DNA from: Bacteroidales bacterium
GTDB taxonomy: Bacteria; Bacteroidota; Bacteroidia; Bacteroidales; UBA932
NCBI GenBank assembly: GCA_017647795.1
Contig: JAGCJX010000031.1
Span: 1,428 to 65,427, forward strand
Direction: 5' to 3'
DNA length: 64,000 bases
Under the pieces are notes generated by a model, which was not told where the DNA came from, made no database searches, and was given only the letters and a program-made list of their open reading frames with translations. A program made the translations under genes and the position numbers. Below, piece by piece: positions 1 through 48,022 of the stretch (positions within the stretch are counted from its first letter, which is position 1; the number at the start of each line of letters is the position of its first letter).

Positions 1-401
1 TGCTGCTTATAGGTCTGTTCATGCTGTTTGGAGGCCAGATTAAACTCCCATCAACAGGAATAAGCCGGAACCGTGAAGGACTTGCCGCCAAAGGAGGACT
101 TGGAGCTCTGCTGCTCGGGATGTTGTTTGCTATGGCATTCTGTCCCACAAGTGGAGTACTTTACTTCGGGATGCTGATACCGATGTCGGCAACCTCCCCC
201 GAAGGTTATCTCTATCCCATCTTGTTCGCAATAGCCACTGCCCTGCCGGTAATCATCGTCGCTTGGGTCCTGGCCTTCAGCGCCAGCAAGATATCGGAAA
301 CATACGGCAAGATGAAGACCATTCAGAAATGGCTCAACATCATAGTAGGAATCCTGTTCACATGCATAGGAATATATTACACAATCATTTCAATCAGTTA
401 G
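1..401 (+). CDS. CcdA/DsbD_2-like transmembrane thiol:disulfide protein (possibly ArsG-like), C-terminal part; the 5' end lies outside the window
   Basis: The frame is open from the window edge. The protein has hydrophobic helices and an AFCPTSG motif, and it sits in an ars-type cluster next to a thioredoxin-like gene. Confidence 0.65.
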   Translation, partial: LLIGLFMLFGGQIKLPSTGISRNREGLAAKGGLGALLLGMLFAMAFCPTSGVLYFGMLIPMSATSPEGYLYPILFAIATALPVIIVAWVLAFSASKISETYGKMKTIQKWLNIIVGILFTCIGIYYTIISIS

Positions 402-403
402 TT

Positions 404-637
404 ATGGAAATCAAAGTATTAGGCCCAGGCTGCGCCAGATGCAAGACAGCCTATTCAGTGGTAGAAAAGGTAATCAAGGACAACAATGTAAACGCCACAC
501 TCTCGAAGGTCGATGACATCATGGAGATGATGCAGTACAATATAATGAGAACTCCGGCAATAGTCGTTGACGGAGTCGTACGAATCAAAGGCAAGGTGCC
601 TACAGAGGCAGAAGTAAAGGAGGTACTCGGACTATGA
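404..637 (+). CDS. thioredoxin-family protein (redox-active disulfide protein 2 type)
   Basis: A 77-aa protein starting MEIKVLGPGCARCK with a CxxC motif. The ATG at 404 lies inside listed ORF 263..637 and 3 nt after the upstream stop. Confidence 0.85.
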   Translation: MEIKVLGPGCARCKTAYSVVEKVIKDNNVNATLSKVDDIMEMMQYNIMRTPAIVVDGVVRIKGKVPTEAEVKEVLGL

Positions 638-7220: not shown

Positions 7221-7814
7221 TCAAGGGCACGGGAATCGGATACTATTGAGACCGGAAAGCGTCAGGTATTCCAGTGCCTTGGCATTGTACAGGGCGCCGA
7301 TCATGGCCACACCACCAAATCCGAGGTGTTTCAGATAAGGTATGGAATCGAACGTGACTCCTCCAAGGGCCACGACCTTTTTGTCAATAATACCCTGGGC
7401 GGATGCTTCCTGCAATTCCTCTTTGCTGAAGCCCGCTTTGTATCCGACTTTGGAAATGCTGTCGAAGATCGGGCTGAGGAAGACGTAGTCGCATGCATCC
7501 TTGTATCGGATAACTTCCTCGAACGTGTGGCAGGAACGGGTTCGAGAGCCGGTATAACCTTCCGGCAGGCATCTTACCTTCCCGTTCAGATGGATCCCCT
7601 TGAGCGAGAATTCATCGTACAGTTCCGGATAATCGTGGACGACGATCCGTTTTCTTTCATGCTCCGTCAATTCCTGCAGCAGGCTCCGGCAATCGTCCAC
7701 AGTAGCATCCGGTTTCCTCAGGTGGAGGGTGTCGATTCCGCATCGGATCAGACCTCGGATCAGACGGACATCGTCCTCCTCCACCCTTGGAGTCGTGATG
7801 GCCAGGATCCTCAT
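7221..7814 (-). CDS. ThiE/TenI-family protein (thiamine-phosphate synthase-like)
   Basis: 197 aa with a TIM-barrel ThiE-like sequence (LHLRKP..., FLSPIFDS, ALGG). It overlaps the thi4 stop by 4 nt. Confidence 0.7.
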   Translation of the reverse strand: MRILAITTPRVEEDDVRLIRGLIRCGIDTLHLRKPDATVDDCRSLLQELTEHERKRIVVHDYPELYDEFSLKGIHLNGKVRCLPEGYTGSRTRSCHTFEEVIRYKDACDYVFLSPIFDSISKVGYKAGFSKEELQEASAQGIIDKKVVALGGVTFDSIPYLKHLGFGGVAMIGALYNAKALEYLTLSGLNSIRFPCP

Positions 7815-8584
7815 GATTTCAATTTCTCAATGATCAGATCGGCTACCTTTTTGCCCGACATGAGCATACCGCCGAAAATAGGTCCCATGCGGGGGGTTCC
7901 ACTGACCGCAGAGGCGGCCATGCCACACACATACAGTCCCGGATAAATCTCCTTCGTTCCGTTTACGACCTCCTCTTCACCGGAAACTACATCCAGCGAG
8001 CGTTCGCCGATGACATCGCCTGTATCCGTGGCCAGGCGTATGCCGTTCTTACGCGCTACGGTCCTGCACATTTCGCTGTCATGGCCCGTACCGTCGATTA
8101 CACATTTTGCCAGAATGTTCAGCGGATCCACGTGCATCCCTTCCCGGAGAACCGGAGTCCAATTCACCACGACGCCGCTGACTACATTGTTTTTGAAGAT
8201 AACATCTTCCACAGAATAGCAGTTGAACAGGGTCGCACCTGCGTGAACTGCCTGGTACAGGAGCGCGGAGGTACTCTCAACGGAATCCATGACATAAAGA
8301 CCCTCATCATACCGTTCATAGTTGATCGCAAACTCCTTTACGATGGGAAGTGCTTCTTCCTGAACGACAATCTGGTTGAACATCATGGCTCCACCCCACA
8401 TACCGCCACCCGGAGCAAGTTTCCGGTCAAACTGCGCCACTTTCAAACCGGCCTTTGCCAGATAGTAGGCGGCCACAATACCGGACGGACCTCCACCCAC
8501 AATGGCCACATCCAAATCCAAATTTCTTTCCAACTTGTTAAAATAGGTACTGATGATACCTCTTGAAACGTTCTTTTCAATCAT
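7811..8584 (-). CDS. thi4: Thi4-type thiazole synthase, non-Cys (His) active-site variant
   Basis: FAD/NAD-fold motif VAIVGGGPSGI and GGGMWGGAMMFN. The segment NWTPVLREGMHVDP aligns with yeast NWT..QCCMDP and places His where the yeast suicide Cys sits. Confidence 0.85.
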   Translation of the reverse strand: MIEKNVSRGIISTYFNKLERNLDLDVAIVGGGPSGIVAAYYLAKAGLKVAQFDRKLAPGGGMWGGAMMFNQIVVQEEALPIVKEFAINYERYDEGLYVMDSVESTSALLYQAVHAGATLFNCYSVEDVIFKNNVVSGVVVNWTPVLREGMHVDPLNILAKCVIDGTGHDSEMCRTVARKNGIRLATDTGDVIGERSLDVVSGEEEVVNGTKEIYPGLYVCGMAASAVSGTPRMGPIFGGMLMSGKKVADLIIEKLKS

Positions 8585-8614: not shown

Positions 8615-9283
8615 TTATCTGTTTGTTTTTATAAGATCCACGATGTGCCGCATCTCTTCCACGGGATCATTGGCGTTGATGATGCTTCCGCTTAGGGCAA
8701 TGCCGTGCACACCGCAGGTCAACAGCTGCGGAATATCTTCTCGATGAATTCCTCCGATAGCAACCACCGGAATGTGGATATCGGCCTCACGCATCCTATC
8801 CAGCAGATCGCGATAACCTTCCAGCCCGAGAACCGGAGCAAGATTCTTTTTGGTCGTGGTAAAACGAAAAGGACCGCAACCGAAATAATCGGGTCTGGAA
8901 TCACGGAGGACCGATGACAGGTCTTCGAAAGAATGGATGGTACTGCCGATGATGAAACGGTCGCCAAGTATTTTACGGGCTTCTGCCACAGGCATATCAT
9001 TCTTGCCCAGATGCACCCCGTCGGCATGAATTTTTTTGGCCACGGAAACATGGTCATCGATGATGAAGGTGGCACCATACTCCCGGCACATTGTCTGAAC
9101 GGTGCGTGCCGTTTCTTCCAATACGGATGCCGGGGCCTCTTTCATGCGTAACTGGATCCAGCGGCAGCCGCCTTCCAGGGCAAGACGAGCAGAATCGACG
9201 TAAGAATACACATCATTGTGATGCGTGATGAACTGAAGCCTGCATTTCTCGGTTAGATCTTCTGAGATTGTTGTGGTTTTCAT
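8615..9283 (-). CDS. thiE: thiamine-phosphate synthase
   Basis: ThiE motifs are present (QLRMKE, FIIDDHV, DGVHLGKND, AIGGI). The ATG at 9283 is preferred over the TTG at 9340 listed in the ORF track. Confidence 0.85.
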   Translation of the reverse strand: MKTTTISEDLTEKCRLQFITHHNDVYSYVDSARLALEGGCRWIQLRMKEAPASVLEETARTVQTMCREYGATFIIDDHVSVAKKIHADGVHLGKNDMPVAEARKILGDRFIIGSTIHSFEDLSSVLRDSRPDYFGCGPFRFTTTKKNLAPVLGLEGYRDLLDRMREADIHIPVVAIGGIHREDIPQLLTCGVHGIALSGSIINANDPVEEMRHIVDLIKTNR

Positions 9284-9350
9284 TGTCAATTTGTTCGTAT
9301 ACAACCCAGAGAAGACGGCTTGATCCAAGCCTGCAAACAATGAATACCAT

Positions 9351-31925: not shown

Positions 31926-32846
31926 ATGAAAACAGGAAACTCATTGCGCGGACATGCTGCGGCCTTTGTCGCTTATGCCATTTTTGGATTCAACATCATT
32001 GTATGCAAGGACCTGACCAGCGAGGGACTCATTCCTCCTCTGGGTATTTTTACCCTGCGTTCCCTGGTGGCTGGGGCACTCTTCTGGTTACTGTCCCTAT
32101 TCCTGCCTGCGGAAAAAGTAGAGAAGAAAGATTACCTGAAAATCTTTGCTGCCTCGATGCTGGGATTCCTCACCTGCCAGCTCACCTTCCTGGTCGGCAT
32201 TCCCCACATCACGCCCATGGACTGTTCCATTCTCACGGTCATGACCCCGATTTATACGATGTTTGTTGCAGCCCTGGTACTCAAGGAACCCATTACCCTC
32301 AAAAAAGCCGGCGGAGTAATCCTTAGTTTTGCCGGCATCATCTACCTGGTCATCAGCCGGGTGACTGCGCCTGGAACCGTCACCGAAAGCTCTCCCTTCG
32401 GCATTTTCATGATCGTCCTGAACAGTCTTAGCTTTGCCCTGTACCTGGGTATCTTCCGACCTCTGATTGCCAAATATTCCGTGGTGACGTTCATGAAATG
32501 GATCTTCCTCTTCTCTGCCCTTGTCGCCACCCCCCTGGCCCTGCCTGGCCTCATCCGGGTGGATTGGGTGACGATCCCGGGAGAACAGTTTGCAGAGCTG
32601 GCCTACCTCATCGTTTGTGCTACTTTCATCAGCTATTTCCTCATCCCGGTCGCCCAAAAGTCCATCCGTCCGACCCTGGTCAGCATGTACAGTTATGTCC
32701 AACCCATCATTGCCATCGCCGTGAGCATCGGCATGGGCATGGAAGCACTGACCTGGCAAAAGATTCTCGCTACGGTCCTGGTCTTTTCTGGTGTGATTCT
32801 TGTAAACAAGAGTCGGGAAGGCTCTAAAACTCCCCAAAAGAAATGA
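31926..32846 (+). CDS. DMT-superfamily (EamA) transporter
   Basis: Ten TM helices forming duplicated EamA halves. The ATG at 31926 lies inside the listed TTG-start ORF. Confidence 0.8.
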   Translation: MKTGNSLRGHAAAFVAYAIFGFNIIVCKDLTSEGLIPPLGIFTLRSLVAGALFWLLSLFLPAEKVEKKDYLKIFAASMLGFLTCQLTFLVGIPHITPMDCSILTVMTPIYTMFVAALVLKEPITLKKAGGVILSFAGIIYLVISRVTAPGTVTESSPFGIFMIVLNSLSFALYLGIFRPLIAKYSVVTFMKWIFLFSALVATPLALPGLIRVDWVTIPGEQFAELAYLIVCATFISYFLIPVAQKSIRPTLVSMYSYVQPIIAIAVSIGMGMEALTWQKILATVLVFSGVILVNKSREGSKTPQKK

Positions 32847-34117
32847 AAACAAGAACGTTTTATACATTATTAATCAGCTTATTATTCATGTCAACCACCT
32901 ACTCTTGCGGCCCTACCCGTCAAGTTTCACAGTCAACCGAAGAAAGAAGGGCTGTACACAACAAGACGGAGGCCTCTGCTGGTGATACAGTTTGCGACGC
33001 ACATCATGATGCAGAATCTCAAGGGGAGCTGTCCTTCCGATTGCTGAAACACCTCTACCAGGGGGAGAATTTCGTATGCTCACCAATGAGCCTGAACTAT
33101 GCCCTGGCGATGGCAGCCGAAGGAGCCAGTGGCCAAACCCGGGAGGAAATGATCCGCCTGATCGGTGACCTGTCAAGCGGGGAAGTATTGCCTACCCCGA
33201 CCGACAATGCCCGCGTGAAGCTCCAGCTCGCCAACGCCCTGCTGGTCAATCAGGATTTCTCTCTCCAAAACAGTTACCAGAAAACCGTCGAAGACCGTTT
33301 TCATGCGACCGTGGAGTCCATGGACTTCTCACACCCGGATCCCGTTGCCAATCACATCAATGCCTGGTCCCAGGAACACACCCACGGCATGATAGAGAAG
33401 ATGCTGGATCCCAAAGATATTGCTCCGGCAGCCGTTGCCTACTTGCTCAATGCCCTGTATTTTCAAGGGGAATGGGCCGGATCAGCACACAAACCCATGT
33501 TCTTGAGCGACAATACTCAGACCGAAGATTTCCATTTGTCTGACGGCACCATCCGTCCCGTGGACATGATGTACAACGTGCAATACCATCGCTATGCAGA
33601 AATGCCGGGGTACAAGGTCCTCGCCCTGCCCTATGCCGGCAACCAATTCTTTTTCTATGTCTTTCTGCCTGATGAAAACAACGTGGACGGCCTCCTGGAG
33701 GAGCTGCAAACCACTTCGTGGTCCAGCATCCTGGAGCAGTTCAAAACCGATGCGCAGGTCTATGTCCGGTTGCCGAAGTTTGAGGTGGAGAACCGGTTTG
33801 ATGTATCAGAAACCTTGGTAAAAATGGGTGTTGAAAAGGCCTTCCAACCCGATATGGCGGAATTTGATCGGATGTTCGTTCCGAAAGACGACTATTCGTT
33901 CTGCATCAGCAAAGTGATTCAAGGGGCCAAGATCGCAGTGACAGAGAAAGGCACCGAGGCCGGAGCTGTTACCATCGTAGAAATGATGGCCACCAGCGCT
34001 TTCCGTCCCGAAGAACCCAAACGCGTATATTTCTATGCGGACCGTCCGTTCCTGTTTTTCCTGGGCGACCTGCACGGCAATGTCCTCTTCCAAGGCGCGT
34101 TTGTTGGGGAAAAGTAG
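32843..34117 (+). CDS. serpin-family lipoprotein (likely inhibitory)
   Basis: Lipobox TTYSCG. The serpin core includes NALYFQGEWA, the hinge EKGTEAGAVT and the C-terminus FYADRPFLFFL. Confidence 0.9.
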   Translation: MKTRTFYTLLISLLFMSTTYSCGPTRQVSQSTEERRAVHNKTEASAGDTVCDAHHDAESQGELSFRLLKHLYQGENFVCSPMSLNYALAMAAEGASGQTREEMIRLIGDLSSGEVLPTPTDNARVKLQLANALLVNQDFSLQNSYQKTVEDRFHATVESMDFSHPDPVANHINAWSQEHTHGMIEKMLDPKDIAPAAVAYLLNALYFQGEWAGSAHKPMFLSDNTQTEDFHLSDGTIRPVDMMYNVQYHRYAEMPGYKVLALPYAGNQFFFYVFLPDENNVDGLLEELQTTSWSSILEQFKTDAQVYVRLPKFEVENRFDVSETLVKMGVEKAFQPDMAEFDRMFVPKDDYSFCISKVIQGAKIAVTEKGTEAGAVTIVEMMATSAFRPEEPKRVYFYADRPFLFFLGDLHGNVLFQGAFVGEK

Positions 34118-38112: not shown

Positions 38113-38487
38113 CTACCGTTTTTCCAAGGTAAGTACGTAGGAGTAATTGTATCTACCGAAATCGAAGCTTTCTGAATGTTTCGGTTCTGCGAAAGAAATC
38201 TTGAATTGTGGCCGGTAGGAGGAGGAATATGTAAACGATCTTTCCAGAACTACTCCGTCGTTATGGATCTCCAGCACATGGAAATTAAAATCCGGGAAAA
38301 TTAGATTCTCTATTCCGTATTTCTTCCACACTTCCTTCTTTGGAGAAAACAAAGACATACCTTCGGTAAGGGTAACACCTTGGAGGTCACACTCAAATCG
38401 ATCTTCCAGATCAATGTCTTTACCAGTCACTTCGTTCTCAGACGATGCACGGGTCTTGAGGACAAACTTGTAATTGTCAAATCTCAT
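38113..38487 (-). CDS. hypothetical protein
   Basis: 124-aa ORF, last in a co-directional run. No family recognised. Confidence 0.45.
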   Translation of the reverse strand: MRFDNYKFVLKTRASSENEVTGKDIDLEDRFECDLQGVTLTEGMSLFSPKKEVWKKYGIENLIFPDFNFHVLEIHNDGVVLERSFTYSSSYRPQFKISFAEPKHSESFDFGRYNYSYVLTLEKR

Positions 38488-39234: not shown

Positions 39235-40170
39235 TTAATCAAACATGACACCCGGATTCATGGCCGAAGGACTCTTCCATTCAATGCCACGACGGGCCAA
39301 CGCTACTTTTTTTGCGCTCCAATAGCTGAAGCAGAAGCCCATGCCTCGTGGTTCGTCCTTCAACTGTTCGTCCACTTCTTTTTCCACCTCATAAATCACA
39401 TCTTCCCATTGTTGGGTGGCCTGAACGGGATCGACCTTGAGCATGCCTCCCAGTAGCTTCCAGCTATTGAGGGCCACTTCACTTGTCGGATTGTTGGAAA
39501 TCCAAGCGAAGTGGTAGATCCAGCGGTCGATCTGCCGGAAGTAATATTTGTCAAAGTTTTCCTGCAGGTACTCGTCAAAGTCGGATGCCAATTCAAAATC
39601 CCGGTAAATACGGTACAATTCGCACAAAGATTGGTACAGCCTGGGGGTCTCCCGTTTAACGACGTAATCATTTTCGAGGATGCATGCAATGTAATGCGCC
39701 TTGTAAACCGGATTGATCGTCGCAGAACGGAACGGCGCCACGTCCTTGAATTCGTGGATCAACTCGCGGACGAGGGGAATGTTTTTCCAGAGTTCACCGG
39801 CCTGGGTATGCTCATTCATGCGATCCACCAATTCTCCTGCATGGCTGTCGGACCACTCTTCTACGACGTCCTTGTCTTTGCTAAAAAAGAACACACACCG
39901 GCCATCAACAGAAATCCGTTCATTCGGCATCGTAAATTCCGGTGTGCCGATTACCTGCCAAGACTTGTCCAGGGTGATTGTTTTGCTCATGTAGGTAAAC
40001 ACCATCCGGTTTTCATCCAGGGACACGACGGTCAAATCGTTCCCATGGAATTTGTACACGTTCCCGGCCATCAGATCCTTGTCAGGAATGCGTTCCCAGA
40101 CTGCCTTACGATTGCCGATTCCCATGTCCCGAGAGGTCTCGATTCGGATTACATTAAAGTCCTGTTTCAT
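39235..40170 (-). CDS. hypothetical protein
   Basis: Long ORF with the conserved-looking C-terminus GMGFCFSYWSAKKVALARRGIEWKSPSAMNPGVMFD. The start is placed at MKQDF; the listed ORF extends to 40386. Confidence 0.5.
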   Translation of the reverse strand: MKQDFNVIRIETSRDMGIGNRKAVWERIPDKDLMAGNVYKFHGNDLTVVSLDENRMVFTYMSKTITLDKSWQVIGTPEFTMPNERISVDGRCVFFFSKDKDVVEEWSDSHAGELVDRMNEHTQAGELWKNIPLVRELIHEFKDVAPFRSATINPVYKAHYIACILENDYVVKRETPRLYQSLCELYRIYRDFELASDFDEYLQENFDKYYFRQIDRWIYHFAWISNNPTSEVALNSWKLLGGMLKVDPVQATQQWEDVIYEVEKEVDEQLKDEPRGMGFCFSYWSAKKVALARRGIEWKSPSAMNPGVMFD

Positions 40171-40336
40171 CCTATCCACGGATATTTTACCCACAAATCT
40201 AACATTTTTTATGAGCTTTTGCAAGAGCATTGGGCAAGGAGACCCCAAATCCAACGAGAGCCGCCAGGCAGACAACAGCTCCAATGACCGGATACAGGAG
40301 CAAGAGGTTGCGAGGCATGGAACCGCGTCTGATCGG

Positions 40337-41038
40337 TTATTTGTAGGCGATGATGGCAACGTACGATCCACGGTCATACCCTTCACAGGGGTCCTCTACC
40401 CGTTCGTGTGAATAGCAGGGGGCAGCGACCAGGGTCTGTGAAAATTCCAGGTTCTCAAATCCTGCAGCTTTCACCAGTTCAATCTTCTCGGCCGTCGTAC
40501 GCCAGTTGGCTTGTTTTACCAGTTCAATCGGGTAAGGCATTAAGGGAGAACATCCTTCCAATAACGGATGGGACCAGGTGCCGACTGAAAGGGCCAGGTT
40601 GTACAACAGTCCGTAGGCACTCTCCTTCGGAACATCGATAACAACCACCTTTCCCCCTTTTTTCAAGGCTGCATGGGCCTTGCGCAGGGCCAGTCCAAGA
40701 TCCTGCATGTAACACGGGCAACCGTTGAATAGGACCGTATCAAATTCTTCAATCCCGTAGTCCGTTTCTTCACCGGTACCGACGATCACGTCCATTCCCC
40801 GTTTGCGGGCGATTTCAGCCATCGCAGCAGAGGGTTCAATCCCTTTTTTCACCACGATGCCGTATTGGTCGGCCATGATTTTTTCGAACAATCCACTGCC
40901 ACAACCAATCGACAGTACATTGCCTGCATTCTTCAAGCAAGAGGCCACCAGTCGGACCTCGGTCTCAAGCACATTGCTGTTTTCAATAAACCATGAATCG
41001 TATTCATTGGCATAACGATCAAATCCTTGATATCCCAT
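40337..41038 (-). CDS. class I SAM-dependent methyltransferase
   Basis: Motif I VLSIGCGSG and post-I GIEPS. At 233 aa, it is the first gene downstream of riboswitch B. Confidence 0.85.
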   Translation of the reverse strand: MGYQGFDRYANEYDSWFIENSNVLETEVRLVASCLKNAGNVLSIGCGSGLFEKIMADQYGIVVKKGIEPSAAMAEIARKRGMDVIVGTGEETDYGIEEFDTVLFNGCPCYMQDLGLALRKAHAALKKGGKVVVIDVPKESAYGLLYNLALSVGTWSHPLLEGCSPLMPYPIELVKQANWRTTAEKIELVKAAGFENLEFSQTLVAAPCYSHERVEDPCEGYDRGSYVAIIAYK

Positions 41039-41043
41039 CGTAT

Positions 41044-41081
41044 TAAAAAATTAAAGCCACATTCCATCATGGAATACGGCC
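41044..41081 (-). terminator. intrinsic-terminator expression platform of riboswitch B
   Basis: The minus strand reads GCCGTATTCCAT-G-ATGGAATGTGGC, a stem of about 10 bp including GU pairs, followed by TTTAATTTTTT. It lies between the aptamer and the ATG. Confidence 0.55.
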
Positions 41082-41114
41082 TATTATCAATAAAATATAG
41101 TTTAGAAATAAGGT

Positions 41115-41199
41115 ACCGTTTCCCTGCGCTGTCATTATACATATCAGGTTCATAGGGTATAATCTCAGCCAAGCCTCGTGGGCCCAGCACCCCTAACTG
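41115..41199 (-). promoter_or_regulatory. TPP (THI-box) riboswitch B
   Basis: Has the same conserved blocks as riboswitch A, with 56 consecutive identical nt (41115..41170 vs 9351..9406). A TATATTTG box lies at 41205..41212. Confidence 0.85.
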
Positions 41200-41298
41200 T
41201 CACGCAAATATACAAATTTTTCCTTAGGGAAACTCCATGGTTACTTGTAATTCTAAACAAAATCGCATATTTTTGGCCAAATAGAATAAATTTTGAAG

Positions 41299-41586
41299 AT
41301 GAACTTTACCGGACTGCTAGTGGGTCTATCCACCTTCTTAATCATCGGACTTTTCCATCCGCTGGTCGTAAAAGCGGAATATTACATGGGTGTCAGAAGC
41401 TGGATCCTGTTTGCCCTTGCTGGCGTACTTTTTGCGATTGCTTCTTTGTGGGTCAGTGACTTGATTGGATCAACCCTCCTGGGCGTACTTGCCTTCTCGT
41501 CCTTCTGGAGCATCCTGGAAGTGATCCATCAGCGGGAACGCGTACAAAAAGGCTGGTTCCCCGAAGGACCCGGACATAAGAAATAA
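41299..41586 (+). CDS. DUF4491-family small membrane protein
   Basis: The sequence MNFTGLLVGLSTFLIIGLFHPLVVKAEYYMG...QRERVQKGWFP is a paralog of 28618..28941. Confidence 0.75.
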   Translation: MNFTGLLVGLSTFLIIGLFHPLVVKAEYYMGVRSWILFALAGVLFAIASLWVSDLIGSTLLGVLAFSSFWSILEVIHQRERVQKGWFPEGPGHKK

Positions 41587-41601: not shown

Positions 41602-42210
41602 ATGAAACTGTATCGATTTATAGTGGCAGTGATGCTATCCATTTCCTTTGTGACCCTCGCGTCTGCGGAGGAAAAGAAACTAATCAAAGGATTCTCCGGC
41701 GGTATGATGGTCCACAGCGGCTATCAGTATGGCGGTGACAATCCCTACAACTTGAACATCAGCAGCCCTACTTTCGGGATTGGTGGTTGCGCCAAACTCC
41801 ACCTCTCGAAGCATTTTAGAGCAGGATTCGAAGGCTATTTTTCTACCGCACCCATCAGCAAGGGTGTTCAAAGTGGCAGCCACAACAAACTGTTCTGGAC
41901 CGGCGCTCTGGCGGAATGCTATTGGCAAACAGGAAAATGGATTCCCTACCTCGGAGCCACGCTGGGTGGCGGTATGGAAACCTCTTTCTATCTGTTTGAA
42001 GGCGACAAACACGATTGGGAATTGGAACAGGTATCTGTGTTTCACAAACAACCGTTTTTTGTGGTCGATCCCTATGTAGGCATCGAATACATCGTCGGGA
42101 AAGCCCTACGCCTCACCTTGAAAGCCGATTGGGTACTTGCATTGAACTCGGACGGTCTGAACAGACCCATGGGACCTCGTATCTATTTTGGCTTTATCTT
42201 CGCGCACTAG
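41602..42210 (+). CDS. small outer-membrane beta-barrel protein
   Basis: Signal peptide, motif GFSGGMMVHSGY and C-terminus IYFGFIFAH. This is the intact version of remnant 28905..29118. Confidence 0.65.
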   Translation: MKLYRFIVAVMLSISFVTLASAEEKKLIKGFSGGMMVHSGYQYGGDNPYNLNISSPTFGIGGCAKLHLSKHFRAGFEGYFSTAPISKGVQSGSHNKLFWTGALAECYWQTGKWIPYLGATLGGGMETSFYLFEGDKHDWELEQVSVFHKQPFFVVDPYVGIEYIVGKALRLTLKADWVLALNSDGLNRPMGPRIYFGFIFAH

Positions 42211-42289: not shown

Positions 42290-44125
42290 CTATCGCTTGG
42301 AAGACCAGTCCAACAGGCATTCGCCTCGGGTGTTGAGCACCCGGATTGTTAGTTCGTCGCCGGTTTTGGTGAGTACCATCACCGTAGCATTGTCCATTCC
42401 CTTACCGCCACCGATGATGACCGGATAATTGTTTTCCGAGGTTCCTTTCGGATGGAAGGCAAAATGGTGAGTATGACCGTGGATGGCTACATCAAAACGG
42501 GCATCGTCCAAAAGCGGCCGCCACAAGGGCTCGCAAAGGTTTTCGCCCAACATTCCATAGATGGGAATGTGGTGGAACAAAATCCGTTTTTCGGCTCGGC
42601 GGAAGGCCTTGGAATCCAATTCTTCTTCCAAAAAAGTCACCTGTTCCTGGCGCAGGCTGGTAAAATCATTCAGACCAGAATATTCGGGGTGGTCATCGGG
42701 TTTGTCCTCCCCACAATCGAGCATTACGATGCGGGTATCACCCCAGTTGAAGGCTCCGTAGGTTCTTCCACCGGCATAATCCAAGTGTTTCCGCAAGCCG
42801 ATGGAATAGGCGTTGCGAATCTCGTGGTTGCCACGGATGAAAATGGTGGGAATACTGCTTCCATTGACGGTTTCGGTCAGGACTTTCAGGGTCTCGGTTA
42901 CTTGTTCGTGGTCCTTCGGATCGTCGATGCAGTCCCCGTTGAAGATGACAAAATCATAATCAACCCCTTGGACCTGAGCATACAACGCCTGAAACAGGTC
43001 CTTGCGTTGGTGCAGGTCGTTGAAAACAAGGACGGTAAAATGGTCTACATCTTCAGCCGGAGTTTCGAATGAATAAAACGGTGAAACAGCCGTATTGCCA
43101 TAAATCTTGTGATAACCTCCGTAATACAGGATCTCTTGCGAGCAGACCCGGTAATAGTAACGCTGCCCCGGATCCAGGTCGTTCAACCGGATTTTGTGGA
43201 TGGACTCATTGAACTCGACCTGACCGTCCACCAGGCAGCGGACGCGTTGCAGCTGTGTGGTGTCGGTACCGTATTCCACCCAACTGTGTGCTGGAATGAC
43301 GGTTTCCCACAGGACAGTCATACCCCGATTGGTCGGATTTTGCAAGTAAGGTTGGGTCCGGAAAAGTTCCTCAGCCGGAAGGGCCGTCCGCAGCAGGACA
43401 GAAACCGGACGGTGGTCCGAGGCCAGGGGTTCTTCCAGGACTTCCCGGGTTACCCAATCCAATTTCGGGGCACTGTCTTTCCAGACTGAGATGTAATCCA
43501 AGGTCCGGTCTGGAAGGGGTGCTGGAAAGGTCTGTGCACGAACATCGTTCAAGATGCGGAAGTTCTCCTGGAATTCTTCTAGGAAGACAGAGCCCGGCAC
43601 ATCATTCAGATCTCCAGCCAGGTAGAAGGGTTTGGTTGTGTTTTGGGCCAGGTTGGCAACGATCTCCAACGAGGCCATCCGATCGGCTTCGGTGAGGGAG
43701 AAATGCGTGCAGGCAAAAACATAGTCTTCAAATTCAGCCACCAAAATCGCCCGTTTTTCCTCGGCACCCGGCAGCGGATAACCTTGGACCGCCAAGGGCT
43801 TTTCTTTGGACAAAATGCCAATGCCGTACTTGCCTCCATCAAAATCAATGGCGGGGAAATAGGCCGAATGCAGGTCGGTGTATTGTGCAATCTCCTCCAG
43901 GACATATTTCTGACCGTAACGTTGGGTCATGCTGTCCAGTTCCTGTACGGCCACCAAATCCGGATTCTCATTCCGGATCACTCGCGCAATCCGTCTGCAA
44001 TCCATAACGTTGTCCATCCCTTTTGCATTGCGCACGTTGTAGGACATGATTTTGATATAATCCTGGGCAGGAACAACGGTTGCACCCACCAATAAACAGG
44101 TCAGGAGGAGGAGGATTTTTTTCAT
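42290..44125 (-). CDS. secreted fusion of an endonuclease/exonuclease/phosphatase (EEP) domain and a purple-acid-phosphatase-like metallophosphoesterase
   Basis: Signal peptide. The EEP domain has IMSYNVRN and LVAVQELD. An FN3-like linker carries PYLQNPT...YYYRV. The metallophosphoesterase (MPE) domain motifs are GDCID, GNHE and HGHTH. Confidence 0.8.
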   Translation of the reverse strand: MKKILLLLTCLLVGATVVPAQDYIKIMSYNVRNAKGMDNVMDCRRIARVIRNENPDLVAVQELDSMTQRYGQKYVLEEIAQYTDLHSAYFPAIDFDGGKYGIGILSKEKPLAVQGYPLPGAEEKRAILVAEFEDYVFACTHFSLTEADRMASLEIVANLAQNTTKPFYLAGDLNDVPGSVFLEEFQENFRILNDVRAQTFPAPLPDRTLDYISVWKDSAPKLDWVTREVLEEPLASDHRPVSVLLRTALPAEELFRTQPYLQNPTNRGMTVLWETVIPAHSWVEYGTDTTQLQRVRCLVDGQVEFNESIHKIRLNDLDPGQRYYYRVCSQEILYYGGYHKIYGNTAVSPFYSFETPAEDVDHFTVLVFNDLHQRKDLFQALYAQVQGVDYDFVIFNGDCIDDPKDHEQVTETLKVLTETVNGSSIPTIFIRGNHEIRNAYSIGLRKHLDYAGGRTYGAFNWGDTRIVMLDCGEDKPDDHPEYSGLNDFTSLRQEQVTFLEEELDSKAFRRAEKRILFHHIPIYGMLGENLCEPLWRPLLDDARFDVAIHGHTHHFAFHPKGTSENNYPVIIGGGKGMDNATVMVLTKTGDELTIRVLNTRGECLLDWSSKR

Positions 44126-44150: not shown

Positions 44151-44951
44151 TTAACGGAAGAAATGGTTCACCGGGCCGTGGCCGTGGCCAATCTCGTATT
44201 TTGCACCGGAGATGATGGCTTGGGCAATGTAGTTCTTGGCGGATACGGCTGCCTGGGTCAAGCCCTCGCCCTTGGCCAATGCGGCAGCAAATGCTGAGGA
44301 CAAGGTACAGCCGGTGCCGTGGGTATTCTTCGTATAAACGCGTTTGGAAGGAAGCAAGGTGGCTGTTCCATCCTCTGCATTGTAGAAATAATCCACCAAG
44401 TCATCGCCCGTAAGGTGACCGGCCTTCAAGAGGACAGATGCCTGGCAACGGGATGAGAGTTGGGCGGCAATGGCTTCGAACTGGTCTTCGGAAGCAATGG
44501 TACAACCGGCCAGGATTTCCGCCTCCGGAATGTTCGGCGTGATGACCCGGGCCAAAGGCATGAGCCGGGTTTTGAGGGCTTCTATGGCCTCTTCTTCAAT
44601 CAACCGGTGGCCGGAAGTCGATACCATCACCGGATCAAGAACGACATTCCGGATGCCATATTGTTCAATCTTGGAAGCCACTACCTCTACGACAGCAGCC
44701 GAATGCAACATCCCAATTTTTACAGCGTCAGCGCCAATGTCGGAGAGGACAGCATCAATCTGGCCTGCTAAAATGTCCAACGGAATGGGGTGTACAGCTT
44801 GTACGCCCACGGTATTCTGTACGGTCACAGCCGTAATCGCCGAAGCGGCAAAACAGCCCATCGCACTGATGGCCTTGATGTCGGCTTGGATGCCGGCTCC
44901 ACCACCCGAGTCGCTGCCCGCGATGGTCAAAACTTTATGATATTGTTTCAT
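44151..44951 (-). CDS. thiD: hydroxymethylpyrimidine/phosphomethylpyrimidine kinase
   Basis: Carries the motifs IAGSDSGGGAGIQADIK and HGTGCTLSSA. Confidence 0.95.
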   Translation of the reverse strand: MKQYHKVLTIAGSDSGGGAGIQADIKAISAMGCFAASAITAVTVQNTVGVQAVHPIPLDILAGQIDAVLSDIGADAVKIGMLHSAAVVEVVASKIEQYGIRNVVLDPVMVSTSGHRLIEEEAIEALKTRLMPLARVITPNIPEAEILAGCTIASEDQFEAIAAQLSSRCQASVLLKAGHLTGDDLVDYFYNAEDGTATLLPSKRVYTKNTHGTGCTLSSAFAAALAKGEGLTQAAVSAKNYIAQAIISGAKYEIGHGHGPVNHFFR

Positions 44952-44952
44952 C

Positions 44953-45903
44953 TTAAAAATGTCTGAATCCTACATAATCTTTTGCTCCGCCCACCCACGT
45001 GAGTGCATTTCCGGCCACAATCCGGCCAATGCGATGGTGAGGTACGGTTAATTGTTCGGCTTGTTCAGGAGACAAGGTGAACAAGAGTTCGTAGTCTTCT
45101 CCCCCACTCAAAGCCAATTCCAAGGGGTCCCAGCCAAAGTCGGCACATTTCTTTTGCATCACTTCGGATACGGGGATCGATCGCAAATCCACTTCTGCAC
45201 CCACGCCCGATGCCTTCAAAATGTGGCGCAGGTCGGAACCAATGCCGTCGGAAATATCCATCATGGCGTGTACGCCCGCAGCAGCCAAGGCCATCCCTTC
45301 ACGGATGCGGGGCCGGGGCAGGTAATGTCGGTCCACCAACCACTGGCCCGCTTCGTCCAAGGGTTTCTGTTGGAGGATGTGTTGCAAGCCGGCAGCAGAA
45401 TCACCCAGCGGTCCGGTGACACAAATCCAGTCACCGACCTTCGCCCCATTTCGTTTTACCGAGGTACCTGAAGGCATTTCCCCAAGAACGGTGACGTTGA
45501 TGCAAAGACGATCGGGACTGGTGGTCGTATCACCTCCCAGCAACGGGCAATCGTACAAGGCAGAAAGTTCCTTATAACCTCGAAAAAAATCCTCGATCCA
45601 AGCTTGTTGCAAGCCTTTGGGCAAGGCAAACGACAGGAAAGAACCGACGCACCGCCCCCCCATCGCTGCCAGATCGCTGATGTTCACGGCAGCGGACTTC
45701 CAGCCCAATTGGTAGGGCGTGATGTGGTCCATCAAAAAATGACTGCCTTCAACCAACATATCCGTGCTAACCAAGGTCTCGCGACCGGTCTGCTGCGGAA
45801 TGATGGCACAGTCATCGCCGATGCCCGTTATCCCTTCCGGCACTTGAATGCCTGCCTGGATGTGCTCAATCAGGCCAAATTCTCCCCAACTTTTTAGATC
45901 CAT
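44953..45903 (-). CDS. thiL: thiamine-monophosphate kinase
   Basis: AIR-synthase-like fold with the motifs GIGDDCAI and GGDT. Confidence 0.9.
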   Translation of the reverse strand: MDLKSWGEFGLIEHIQAGIQVPEGITGIGDDCAIIPQQTGRETLVSTDMLVEGSHFLMDHITPYQLGWKSAAVNISDLAAMGGRCVGSFLSFALPKGLQQAWIEDFFRGYKELSALYDCPLLGGDTTTSPDRLCINVTVLGEMPSGTSVKRNGAKVGDWICVTGPLGDSAAGLQHILQQKPLDEAGQWLVDRHYLPRPRIREGMALAAAGVHAMMDISDGIGSDLRHILKASGVGAEVDLRSIPVSEVMQKKCADFGWDPLELALSGGEDYELLFTLSPEQAEQLTVPHHRIGRIVAGNALTWVGGAKDYVGFRHF

Positions 45904-47213
45904 CCCTCCAACGAGTCTGCGTATTCGTAACCTTTGTTTTCTCCGTAATAGCCGTAATCCCAGAAGGCATATTCGTACAACGCGGCACGAAGGTATACCC
46001 GGTTCATTTCTTCCAGGGTTTGCGCATCAGCTTCCAAAGCCCATGCATCCATGATGTCCAGGACGGTGTTTACCCCTTCGGTAAACGCTTCGTTGCCGTA
46101 TTCCAGAATCCACTCTTTATAGGGGTTGCCTTCGAGTTTTGCTTGGGCAAGGATTTCCAGTCCGACACGGTTGTAAATCCACATACAAGGCAACATCACC
46201 GCCAAGGAGGCGTATTTATTGCCACTTTGAATGGTTTCTTGGATCAGACGGTTGTAGCCCTCTGTAACGACCGATGCGTTGACTTGGATGTCCATGCCGT
46301 AGCGTTCAATCAGCAATTCGTGCATGGCTTTCTCCCCTTCCATCCCGCTTTGGGCAAAGGCCACAAACAACTCGCGGTCCGCGTCGTTGTCCATCATATC
46401 AGCCAGCGCCATCATGTTGCGGTAGTAATTCCCCAGATAAATCTCGTCTTGGGCAATGTAACGGCCGAAAATCTCCATGCTCAAGCTGCCATCGGCCAGC
46501 TCTTTGAGAAAGTCCAAGGTCAGGATCTCGCGGTAAATGCGGCTGGAAGTGCGCCAGATTTGCTGGCACCAGCTCGGACGGGCATGGGTTTCTACAATTT
46601 CCTTCAGGGCTTGTGTTGCCGCAGTGATGTCCTCTGCCGAAGAAATGGCACTGACCACAGCGATGCCGTCGCATCCGGTTGCAACCACTGCCCCGGCCGT
46701 ACTTTGGTTCATTCCCCCAATGGCTACCGTCGGATGGGCCGAAAGCCGGACGGCTTCCTTCAAACCCTCCAGCCCAAAGGGAGCTGCCGTATCCGTTTTG
46801 GTCGGAGTACCGTACACCGGTGAAATACCGACATAATCAACATCCAGTTCATTCGCCATCAACAAATCCCCGATGTTTTCCACGGAGAGGCCAATGATTT
46901 TATCCGGCCCCATCAGGCGACGTACATCGGCATAATCCATGTCCGACTGGCCAATGTGAACCCCAGCAGCATCCACTGCCAAGGCTACGTCAACACGGTC
47001 GTTGATGATGAGGGGTACTCCCGCCGGTTCTAAGACGGATTTTACACGACGCGCCAGCTCCACAAACTCCCCGGTCGGGGTATCTTTTTCACGCAACTGC
47101 ACCATCGTCACGCCCCCGGCCACCGCTTTGGAGATGACTTCTTCCAAAGAACGTCCCAAAGACAAGGAACGGTCCGTCACCAAGTATAATTTTAATAACT
47201 CTTTAATTTCCAT
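45894..47213 (-). CDS. thiE: fusion of thiamine-phosphate synthase (ThiE) and TenA-type thiaminase II
   Basis: The N-terminal half has ThiE motifs (LYLVTD, VQLREKD, IINDRVD, AIGG). The C-terminal half has TenA motifs, including the catalytic-Cys context MLPCMWIY. Confidence 0.85.
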   Translation of the reverse strand: MEIKELLKLYLVTDRSLSLGRSLEEVISKAVAGGVTMVQLREKDTPTGEFVELARRVKSVLEPAGVPLIINDRVDVALAVDAAGVHIGQSDMDYADVRRLMGPDKIIGLSVENIGDLLMANELDVDYVGISPVYGTPTKTDTAAPFGLEGLKEAVRLSAHPTVAIGGMNQSTAGAVVATGCDGIAVVSAISSAEDITAATQALKEIVETHARPSWCQQIWRTSSRIYREILTLDFLKELADGSLSMEIFGRYIAQDEIYLGNYYRNMMALADMMDNDADRELFVAFAQSGMEGEKAMHELLIERYGMDIQVNASVVTEGYNRLIQETIQSGNKYASLAVMLPCMWIYNRVGLEILAQAKLEGNPYKEWILEYGNEAFTEGVNTVLDIMDAWALEADAQTLEEMNRVYLRAALYEYAFWDYGYYGENKGYEYADSLEGWI

Positions 47214-47236
47214 TATGTATAACAAATATGTTTTAC

Positions 47237-48022
47237 TTAAATATCGGCTTCTTTCAAACGGTATAGCTCATCCAGGAAGTGGATTTGCATCGAACCATTG
47301 CCCCGAGCCAGAGCGGCAGCCCGTTCGCCGGCCAAACTCATCACGGCCATGGCCGCTGTAGCCGCTTCCATCGGATCTGCGACAACGGCAGCAAATGCGC
47401 CCACGAGGGCTGTAGAGGTACAACCCATGCCGGTTACAGCCGTCATGATGGGGTGTCCGCCTTCGACCGTATGAACCCGCGTTCCGTTGGTGATGTAGTC
47501 CGTTTCACCACTGATTACCACGACGGCACCGGTCTCCAATGCAAGGATTTTGGCGGCCTCCAAGGCATCGTGGCTCGTCGCACTGCTATCTACCCCTTTG
47601 CTGCGGATGTCGGAGTTGACCAAGGCCATGATTTCACTGCCGTTTCCCCGGATGATGGTGGGATGGCAACGACGGATGAGTTCCCAGGCCGTTGCTGTCC
47701 GTTGGCTCGTTGCTCCGGCCCCGACGGGATCCAGAACAATCGGGGTTCCACGACGGGATGCGGCAAGTCCAGCCGCCAACATGCCTTCGATCCATTGGGT
47801 ATCCAAGGTACCGATGTTGATGACCAGCGCACCCGCAATGGCGGTCATTTCTTCCATCTCATCGACCCAATGGGCCATGACAGGAGACGCACCAATGGCC
47901 AAAAGCGCATTAGCTGAATTGTTCATAACTACGTAATTGGTAATGTTGTGCACGAGAGGACCCTGGGCCCTCACTGATGCAATCGCTGCCCGAAGAGCAG
48001 CTTGCGAAATGGATGTTTTCAT
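47237..48022 (-). CDS. thiM: hydroxyethylthiazole kinase
   Basis: Carries the ThiM motifs VHNITNYVVMN, IRGNGSEI and TGMGC. Confidence 0.9.
   Translation of the reverse strand: MKTSISQAALRAAIASVRAQGPLVHNITNYVVMNNSANALLAIGASPVMAHWVDEMEEMTAIAGALVINIGTLDTQWIEGMLAAGLAASRRGTPIVLDPVGAGATSQRTATAWELIRRCHPTIIRGNGSEIMALVNSDIRSKGVDSSATSHDALEAAKILALETGAVVVISGETDYITNGTRVHTVEGGHPIMTAVTGMGCTSTALVGAFAAVVADPMEAATAAMAVMSLAGERAAALARGNGSMQIHFLDELYRLKEADI

Follow-up and report, generated by a model that had tools for sequence, protein, structure and literature searches.

A probable TPP riboswitch upstream of a methyltransferase gene that recurs in thiamine operons of Bacteroidales

Why should a riboswitch for thiamine pyrophosphate (TPP) precede a gene for an S-adenosylmethionine (SAM)-dependent methyltransferase, and not a gene for thiamine biosynthesis or transport? 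The question arises from a 64,000-nucleotide stretch of contig JAGCJX010000031.1 (positions 1,428 to 65,427; assembly GCA_017647795.1) from a Bacteroidales bacterium of the UBA932 lineage, hereafter called the window, in which a TPP aptamer (RS2) and a terminator hairpin lie directly in front of a gene for a class I methyltransferase (MT) (Table 1). A preliminary description of the locus had left two readings: either the enzyme acts on a thiamine-related metabolite, or the riboswitch is a duplicate that captured an unrelated gene. The comparative evidence favors the former. It is likely that a canonical TPP OFF switch controls a methyltransferase of a thiamine-operon family, for which we infer a role in the pyrimidine branch of the pathway.

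The answer lies in the neighborhoods of MT in other species. One genome per species was scanned, 147 relatives of MT were found, and the best 80 (59 to 84% identity) were examined, with neighboring genes labeled by BLAST against references whose identity Pfam had confirmed. Co-directional thi genes are located no more than two genes away from MT in 71 of the 80 loci; 64 of these were recognized by script and seven by inspection of the labeled neighbors, a longer antisense open reading frame (ORF) having masked MT in the ORF filter. In 63 loci, tenA or thiD is among the co-directional genes. The recurrent gene orders are riboswitch-MT-thiM-thiE/tenA-(thiL)-thiD, to which thiE-thi4 is appended in some species; riboswitch-MT-tenA-thiD-thiE-thiG-thiH; riboswitch-tenI/thiE-thiG-thiH-thiF-MT-tenA-thiD; and riboswitch-thiM-thiE/tenA-thiD-MT. 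A covariance model of our own, built from nine aptamers and applied to the 80 loci, placed a TPP aptamer directly upstream of MT at 42 of them, and at five others it found the aptamer heading the operon. Thus, the question posed in the preliminary description of whether orthologous methyltransferases also carry THI-boxes is answered by an aptamer at 47 of the 80 loci. An earlier regular expression for the THI-box had found 29 of 80, with one false match (L058, 6719-6784), and is superseded by the covariance model. With the Rfam model, 13 of 18 sampled loci reached the gathering score, and those below the cut-off (L034, L035, L037, L040, and L049) are the five weakest matches of our own model. 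Among the nine loci without thi neighbors, three (L017, L018, and L035) resemble the window in having just an aptamer and MT, two run into a contig end, and four (L045, L046, L055, and L076) have no thiamine link within 4 kb. Judged by gene context, members of the MT family are regularly part of the operons for thiamine biosynthesis and salvage throughout the Bacteroidales, and MT of the window very likely belongs to the TPP regulon.

Furthermore, MT is found fused to enzymes of the pathway. Among the longer family representatives, P0123 is an MT-TenA fusion in which the catalytic Cys of TenA is retained, and P0141 and P0144 are ThiD-MT fusions. Seven further ThiD-MT clusters (P0274-P0279 and P0287) were recognized by precomputed Pfam PF08543, and in L022, MT and TenA share a single ORF. 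TenA and ThiD were the only fusion partners seen; there was none with ThiM, Thi4, ThiG, or ThiE. Where TenA adjoins MT as a separate protein, it retains the catalytic Cys, Asp, and Glu of Bacillus subtilis TenA. A search with the MT domain of P0141 revealed 35 relatives, of which the six with a source name come from Deltaproteobacteria/Thermodesulfobacteriota, Verrucomicrobiota, Krumholzibacteria, and the archaeon Vulcanisaeta. In this distant subfamily, L081 and L082 have a TPP aptamer (69.3 bits in L081) followed by thiD/thiN-thi4-MT-tenA-thiC, thi4-MT is the whole cluster in L083 and L084, and L086 has a ThiD-MT fusion (1310-2452) followed by tenA; beside the MT homolog of L085 (P0299), where a thiamine context was looked for, none was seen. 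MT and tenA overlap by 4 nucleotides (nt) in both L081 and L086, which suggests translational coupling. From the contexts in the distant subfamily it follows that the thiamine linkage of MT is old and survives rearrangement.

Two side observations were made in these loci. In L071, a cobalamin riboswitch (99-300, minus strand; 77.6 bits) stands back to back with a TPP riboswitch (476-574, plus strand; 67.1 bits) within 180 nt. A second, unrelated methyltransferase gene of the UbiE type is convergent to thiC at the end of the clusters of L081 (8785-9429, minus strand) and L082 (3999-4643, minus strand).

MT could also be a mere hitch-hiker in thi operons that has no role in thiamine metabolism, and a duplicated riboswitch could have landed in front of it in the window. 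The four loci without a thiamine link are in line with this idea, as are the closest solved relative, TM1293, which has no known thiamine connection, and the weak and generic matches of MT in NCBIfam (see below). However, the linkage persists through operon rearrangement, with MT at four or more distinct places in thi operons; it is present in at least two divergent subfamilies and in several phyla; and it comprises two independent kinds of gene fusion. In addition, MT keeps a TPP riboswitch of its own where it is separated from the operon, that is, in the window and in L017, L018, and L035. We therefore consider a hitch-hiker very improbable. The related proposal of the preliminary description, capture of an unrelated gene, is rejected because MT is a conserved thiamine-operon gene, with thi genes beside it in 71 of 80 species and with fusions to TenA and ThiD.

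The riboswitch in front of MT is of an ordinary kind. The Rfam scan that had been suggested for the locus, run over the whole window, matched RS2 to RF00059 at 60.2 bits (gathering cut-off, 54.3; E value, 2.6e-09), and the match covers model positions 1-105 of 105. A complete THI-box aptamer had been described at 41115..41199 on the minus strand, and the span of helix P1 (~41199-41116) agrees with it. Under our own covariance model, the score is 101.2 bits. In the Rfam alignment, every upper-case consensus position is matched, including the THI-box and ligand-contact nucleotides CUGAGA, ACCUGAU, and GCG-AGGGA, which are invariant across the aligned related aptamers. Across 47 distinct related aptamers, helices P1-P5 were paired in 96% of cells, compared to 78% in shuffles; compensatory changes on both sides were present in 14 of 22 pairs, and 200 cells had double changes. 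The observed covariation score was reached by none of 500 shuffles, and slid controls were 36 to 57% paired, with the caveat that the aptamer alignment of this test had been fitted to the model. The P3 stem of RS2 is short, as it is in the other Bacteroidales aptamers found. On its 5′ side, RS2 is abutted by the box TATATTTG, as noticed before. It conforms to TAnnTTTG, which we take to be the −7 promoter consensus of Bacteroides, and presumably acts as a promoter. Such a box immediately precedes each of the three TPP aptamers of the window, in which TAnnTTTG occurs 62 times in total (36 ± 6 in shuffles).

Between the aptamer and MT, the preliminary description had seen a hairpin of roughly 10 bp with a U-run at 41044..41081; we find a hairpin of 13 pairs at 41082-41054 and a U-run down to 41044. 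The terminator scan alone would not suffice to establish it, with three terminators found in the region compared to 1.5 ± 1.4 expected, which is not above chance. The terminator is taken as real because it is conserved in orthologous leaders: a hairpin and a U-run are present in 22 of the 42 orthologous MT leaders, and in most of these the 5′ arm reads GCCGTATTCC or differs from it only slightly. When the fold is cut off at the loop of the hairpin, the 3′ segment of the aptamer, CAGGGAAACGGU (41126-41115), pairs with the 5′ arm of the terminator (41080-41068). The duplex of the two has −12.6 kcal/mol, compared to −5.2 ± 1.8 kcal/mol in shuffles, and in 14 of 15 testable leaders, that of the window included, the complementarity of aptamer 3′ end and terminator arm is within the lowest ≤2.3% of shuffled arms.

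These features are consistent with a transcriptional OFF switch of the canonical type. With TPP bound, P1 and the P4/P5 arm would sequester the 3′ segment of the aptamer, the hairpin and the U-tract would form, and transcription would stop 6 to 16 nt before the start codon. At low TPP levels, the same segment would pair with the 5′ arm of the hairpin and act as an anti-terminator, and MT would be transcribed. Since the anti-terminator pairing excludes the closed aptamer and the terminator alike, the predicted arrangement is the classical OFF-switch design. We are highly confident that RS2 and the terminator constitute a TPP riboswitch with a terminator platform upstream of MT; both are real and ordinary, and the riboswitch itself contributes nothing new.

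How, then, did MT come to be alone under its riboswitch? The window holds three TPP riboswitch units (Table 1), and the genes driven by RS3 are those that follow MT in relatives. In the relatives closest to MT (L001-L005; 82 to 84% identity), a single riboswitch-MT-thiM-thiE/tenA-thiL-thiD operon is present, to which L008-L012 append thiE-thi4; in L008-L012 and L015, one operon unites the genes of all three units of the window. RS1, RS2, and RS3 are mutually 78 to 87% identical, about as close as each of them is to the orthologous aptamers of relatives. The simplest reading would be operon fission with riboswitch duplication: an ancestral riboswitch-MT-thiM-thiE/tenA-thiL-thiD operon (with thiE-thi4 appended in some relatives) would have split into three units, the riboswitch would have been copied to each, and MT would have become a single-gene unit under RS2. 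The duplicated riboswitch of the preliminary description thus stands as far as duplication is concerned, given the identity of the aptamers, but not with respect to capture, since the duplication would have accompanied the split of the operon. The gene order of the window recurs in four independent metagenome contigs (L087-L090) and is, therefore, not an assembly artefact. In RS3, the start codon of thiM (48022) comes directly after the 3′ strand of P1 and no terminator is present, which suggests control of translation and not of transcription, unlike in RS2. The thiazole route varies among relatives, which carry either Thi4 or ThiG/ThiH/ThiF within otherwise similar operons.

The protein itself is easily assigned to a superfamily. 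MT matches five Pfam families (Methyltransf_23, 11, 25, 31, and 12), each above the cut-off, and the motif VLSIGCGSG is found at residues 41-49, so that the class I SAM methyltransferase first noticed directly downstream of the riboswitch is confirmed. In the alignment of MT, G45, G47, and S48 of motif I (GCGSG) are invariant, C46 nearly so, and E68 is invariant as well. An AlphaFold2 model (predicted local distance difference test [pLDDT], 83.8; predicted template modeling score [pTM], 0.86) gave more than 1000 Foldseek matches at an E value of ≤0.001, and the 50 best, which were listed, were almost all methyltransferases. MT thus has the marks of the class I enzymes, a Rossmann-like seven-strand fold with a GxGxG motif I and an acidic residue (E68) after beta-2. 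The sole close relative in the PDB among the matches listed was 1vlm, TM1293 of Thermotoga maritima (33% identity; TM-score, 0.81/0.90); the remaining ones listed were generic small-molecule methyltransferases with 13 to 23% identity. A scan of NCBIfam revealed sub-threshold generic matches only (the DVU_1556 family with 45 bits versus a cut-off of 155, and CpaM). In a database clustered at 90% identity, 2081 homologs were found, of which the few whose source is named are annotated as "class I SAM-dependent methyltransferase" and come from Bacteroidales or Rikenellaceae. When 1.84 billion cluster representatives were searched with a profile, a compact family emerged with 48 representatives at an E value of ≤1e-30, many of them fragments; beyond this value, the matches blend into a broader TM1293-like group. 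Catalysis by cysteine was considered as well, as the invariant LFNGCPCY after beta-4 resembled the PC motif of pyrimidine C5-methyltransferases. It was dropped because the wider thiamine-linked family varies at this site (NGSPSY, NGCSTY, and STVLSY) and TM1293 has VTTICF.

Besides the four loci without a thiamine link, several observations weigh against our interpretation of the switch and of the enzyme. P1 of RS2 contains a single internal A-G mismatch where RS1 has a G-U pair, and the fold of the full leader is no more stable than that of shuffles (z, −1.19). A recognizable terminator is absent from 20 of the 42 orthologous leaders, and hence the switching mechanism is not uniform across the MT family; these 20 leaders are shorter (36 to 124 nt) and may act at the level of translation, a design of which RS3 of the window is an example. 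TM1293, the only close structural relative, is itself uncharacterized, and the TPP binding, the termination, and the methyl transfer proposed here are predictions. Finally, genes of the thiazole branch are frequent neighbors of MT.

The last point bears on the reaction catalyzed by MT. We give about an even chance to the idea that MT, with SAM as the methyl donor, methylates a compound related to hydroxymethylpyrimidine (HMP) in the pyrimidine (HMP) branch. MT would work there with TenA (aminopyrimidine aminohydrolase/thiaminase II) and ThiD (HMP kinase), either in salvage or in pre-empting damaged or analogue pyrimidines. This assignment rests mainly on the fusions, because MT often also adjoins genes of the thiazole branch: the gene immediately after MT is thiM in 25 of the 80 loci, and MT is preceded by thiF in 19 and by thi4 in L081 and L083. 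It is imaginable that MT has its substrate in the thiazole branch, or among thiamine and its phosphates, for example a thiazole precursor, a by-product, or a damaged thiamine species; the MT of the distant subfamily that directly follows thi4, and the clusters that consist of thi4-MT only, would fit as well. Yet all the fusions seen are to TenA and ThiD of the pyrimidine branch, and the 4-nt overlap mentioned above is with tenA. Moreover, MT occurs with the Thi4 route, with the ThiG/ThiH/ThiF route, and in salvage-only operons, so that no single thiazole chemistry accounts for its presence. A thiazole-branch function thus appears unlikely. MT was also considered as a substitute for ThiC, as no thiC was found within 4 kb of MT in the 80 Bacteroidales loci or anywhere in the window; as a general rule, this is not supported because L081 and L082 carry MT-tenA-thiC in one cluster. 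Returning to the pyrimidine branch, the MT family might represent an unrecognized step of thiamine-pyrimidine metabolism in anaerobes, which either converts an HMP-related compound, taken up from the environment or damaged, to or from the substrate of TenA/ThiD or makes an HMP analogue, a proposal that we regard as evenly balanced between right and wrong.

The genes flanking the RS2-MT unit were inspected as well. The preliminary description had raised the possibility that the genes downstream of MT (39235..40170, a DUF1963 gene, and 38113..38487) are co-regulated with it. The ORFs are present as described, with DUF1963 assigned by Pfam at an E value of 2.8e-20, but co-regulation is unlikely, because homologs of the three are absent from all 80 related loci and the gap of 166 nt after MT holds a weak hairpin (40282-40257) and a separate box, TAGATTTG. 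The box suggests separate transcription of these genes; some read-through from MT could still occur. The genes between thiD and RS2 are likewise without homologs in these loci. One of them, on the same strand and 25 nt after thiD (42290-44125, minus strand), encodes a protein of 611 amino acids (aa) with endonuclease/exonuclease/phosphatase and purple-acid/metallophosphatase domains, which may be co-transcribed with the RS3 operon; the arrangement recurs in contigs L087-L090. Divergent from RS2-MT are a DUF4491 gene (41293-41586, plus strand) and an ORF of 202 aa (41602-42210, plus strand; no Pfam match). A TATTTTTG box (41268-41275, plus strand) precedes the DUF4491 gene, and the divergent region of 90 nt appears to hold two promoters. 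Elsewhere in the window, a bacterial serpin is encoded at 32843-34117 on the plus strand (Pfam Serpin; E value, 2.9e-83).

Table 1. Features of the three riboswitch units and the flanking region (positions in the window)
Feature	Position	Strand	Remark
Class I SAM-dependent methyltransferase (MT), 233 aa	40337..41038	-	Pfam; thiamine-operon-associated family
TPP riboswitch aptamer RS2 (THI element)	41104..41204	-	Rfam RF00059 match
Bacteroidetes-type −7 box TATATTTG (consensus TAnnTTTG)	41205..41212	-	Immediately 5′ of RS2; putative promoter
RS2 3′ segment CAGGGAAACGGU (P4 3′ strand, GA junction, P1 3′ strand)	41115..41126	-	Also predicted anti-terminator 5′ strand
Intrinsic terminator hairpin, 13-bp stem, 3-nt loop	41054..41082	-	Scan and folding; 5′ arm 41068-41080
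Terminator U-tract TAATTTTTTA	41044..41053	-	Ends 6 nt before MT start codon (ATG at 41038)
Weak terminator-like hairpin after MT stop	40257..40282	-	Poor T-tail CGTTGGATTT; only suggestive
−7 box TAGATTTG	40194..40201	-	24 nt upstream of next ORF (ATG 40170)
ORF, 311 aa	39235-40170	-	No Pfam match
ORF, 124 aa	38113-38487	-	No Pfam match
TPP aptamer RS1, 65.5 bits	9340..9440	-	RF00059; predicted to drive thiE, thi4, tenI-like gene
thiE	8615-9340 (likely ATG 9283)	-	Under RS1
thi4, Thi4-family thiazole synthase	7811-8584	-	Pfam E 6.4e-76; between thiE and tenI-like gene, under RS1
tenI-like gene	7221-7814	-	Under RS1
TPP aptamer RS3, 59.2 bits	48013..48111	-	RF00059; predicted to drive thiM, thiE/tenA, thiL, thiD
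thiM	47237-48022	-	Under RS3
thiE/tenA	45894-47225	-	Under RS3
thiL	44953-45903	-	Under RS3
thiD	44151-44951	-	Under RS3

Members of gut and rumen communities exchange thiamine and its precursors and compete for them, and the pathway is commonly held to be fully mapped. An unannotated methyltransferase in the thiamine operons of most of the species sampled from several families of Bacteroidales (Muribaculaceae, Rikenellaceae and UBA932-like lineages, and Prolixibacteraceae), together with the fusions to TenA and ThiD in other anaerobes, points to a missing reaction, which might feed salvage, control damage, or yield an antivitamin. If this is true, a large share of the Bacteroidales of gut and rumen, as well as some sulfate reducers, would possess a new vitamin B1 enzyme that serves salvage, damage control, or antagonism. 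Control by a riboswitch offers an experimental handle, because MT would be induced by thiamine limitation. The window would also be a clear example of a riboswitch-controlled operon that breaks into three units and keeps a copy of the riboswitch in each. To our knowledge, the thi operon of Bacteroides thetaiotaomicron has no such methyltransferase gene. Our full-text literature searches, which had most subscription journals outside their coverage so that an earlier mention is possible, revealed no description of MT. A survey of riboswitch regulons from 2013 sorted TPP-regulated genes into biosynthesis and transport, with 11 Bacteroidaceae genomes for the phylum, and neither "methyltransferase" nor "methylase" occurs in its main text (PMC3766115). 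What would be new is a further member of the regulon of a known riboswitch class, and the lead worth following is the MT family.

Compared to known systems, RS2 shows no structural difference from the canonical TPP riboswitches with intrinsic terminators that control thiamine operons in Firmicutes and Bacteroidetes: it has the same THI-box nucleotides, the same P1-P5 architecture, and the same predicted terminator/anti-terminator logic through the 3′ strand of P1. Unusual is only the regulated gene, a methyltransferase that here forms a single-gene unit. TM1293 (1vlm), a SAM methyltransferase from structural genomics, has the N-terminal helical lid and the C-terminal beta-hairpin in common with MT. 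It does not have LFNGCPCY and DVPKES, the signatures of the thiamine-linked MT family, and no thiamine context is known for it.

On the basis of gene context, MT can be likened to the methyltransferase of bacimethrin biosynthesis, which was reportedly named BcmC by Cooper et al. in 2014. In Clostridium botulinum and Paenibacillus, that enzyme, likewise SAM dependent, is encoded in an operon putatively controlled by a TPP riboswitch, together with thiM/thiD/thiE and a thiaminase (PMC5627462; the composition of the cluster is also given in PMC12345177). The statement of the preliminary description that methyltransferases are not part of the classical TPP regulon therefore needs a qualifier. Following this precedent, MT, which adjoins or is fused to ThiD and the thiaminase-II-type TenA, could O-methylate 5-hydroxymethylcytosine or a similar base to yield bacimethrin or a related HMP antivitamin that is activated by ThiD. 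However, no thymidylate-synthase-like hydroxymethylase, nucleoside-deoxyribosyltransferase-like glycosidase, or thiaminase I was seen beside MT, neither by the ORF labels in the 80 loci, where only thi genes stood beside MT, nor by Pfam scans of 10 of the 25 unlabeled co-directional neighbors, which revealed only unrelated housekeeping genes; MT has TenA in their place and stands among housekeeping thi genes. The adjoining ThiD, ThiE, and ThiM are the only copies seen per fetched operon, and thus the product would be made into a toxin by the cell's own pathway. Conservation in the core operon of 71 out of 80 commensal species also suits housekeeping better than allelopathy, and we consider it quite improbable that MT is an enzyme of the BcmC type.

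For the reading that we prefer, a housekeeping role next to TenA and ThiD, Nudix hydrolases offer a plausible damage-control model. Those fused to or clustered with ThiD or TenA are said, by Goyer et al. in 2013, to pre-empt damage in thiamin metabolism. They differ from MT in fold and in chemistry (pyrophosphate hydrolysis versus methyl transfer), but like MT, they are accessory enzymes of a generic superfamily that are recognizable only by their clustering or fusion with ThiD and TenA.

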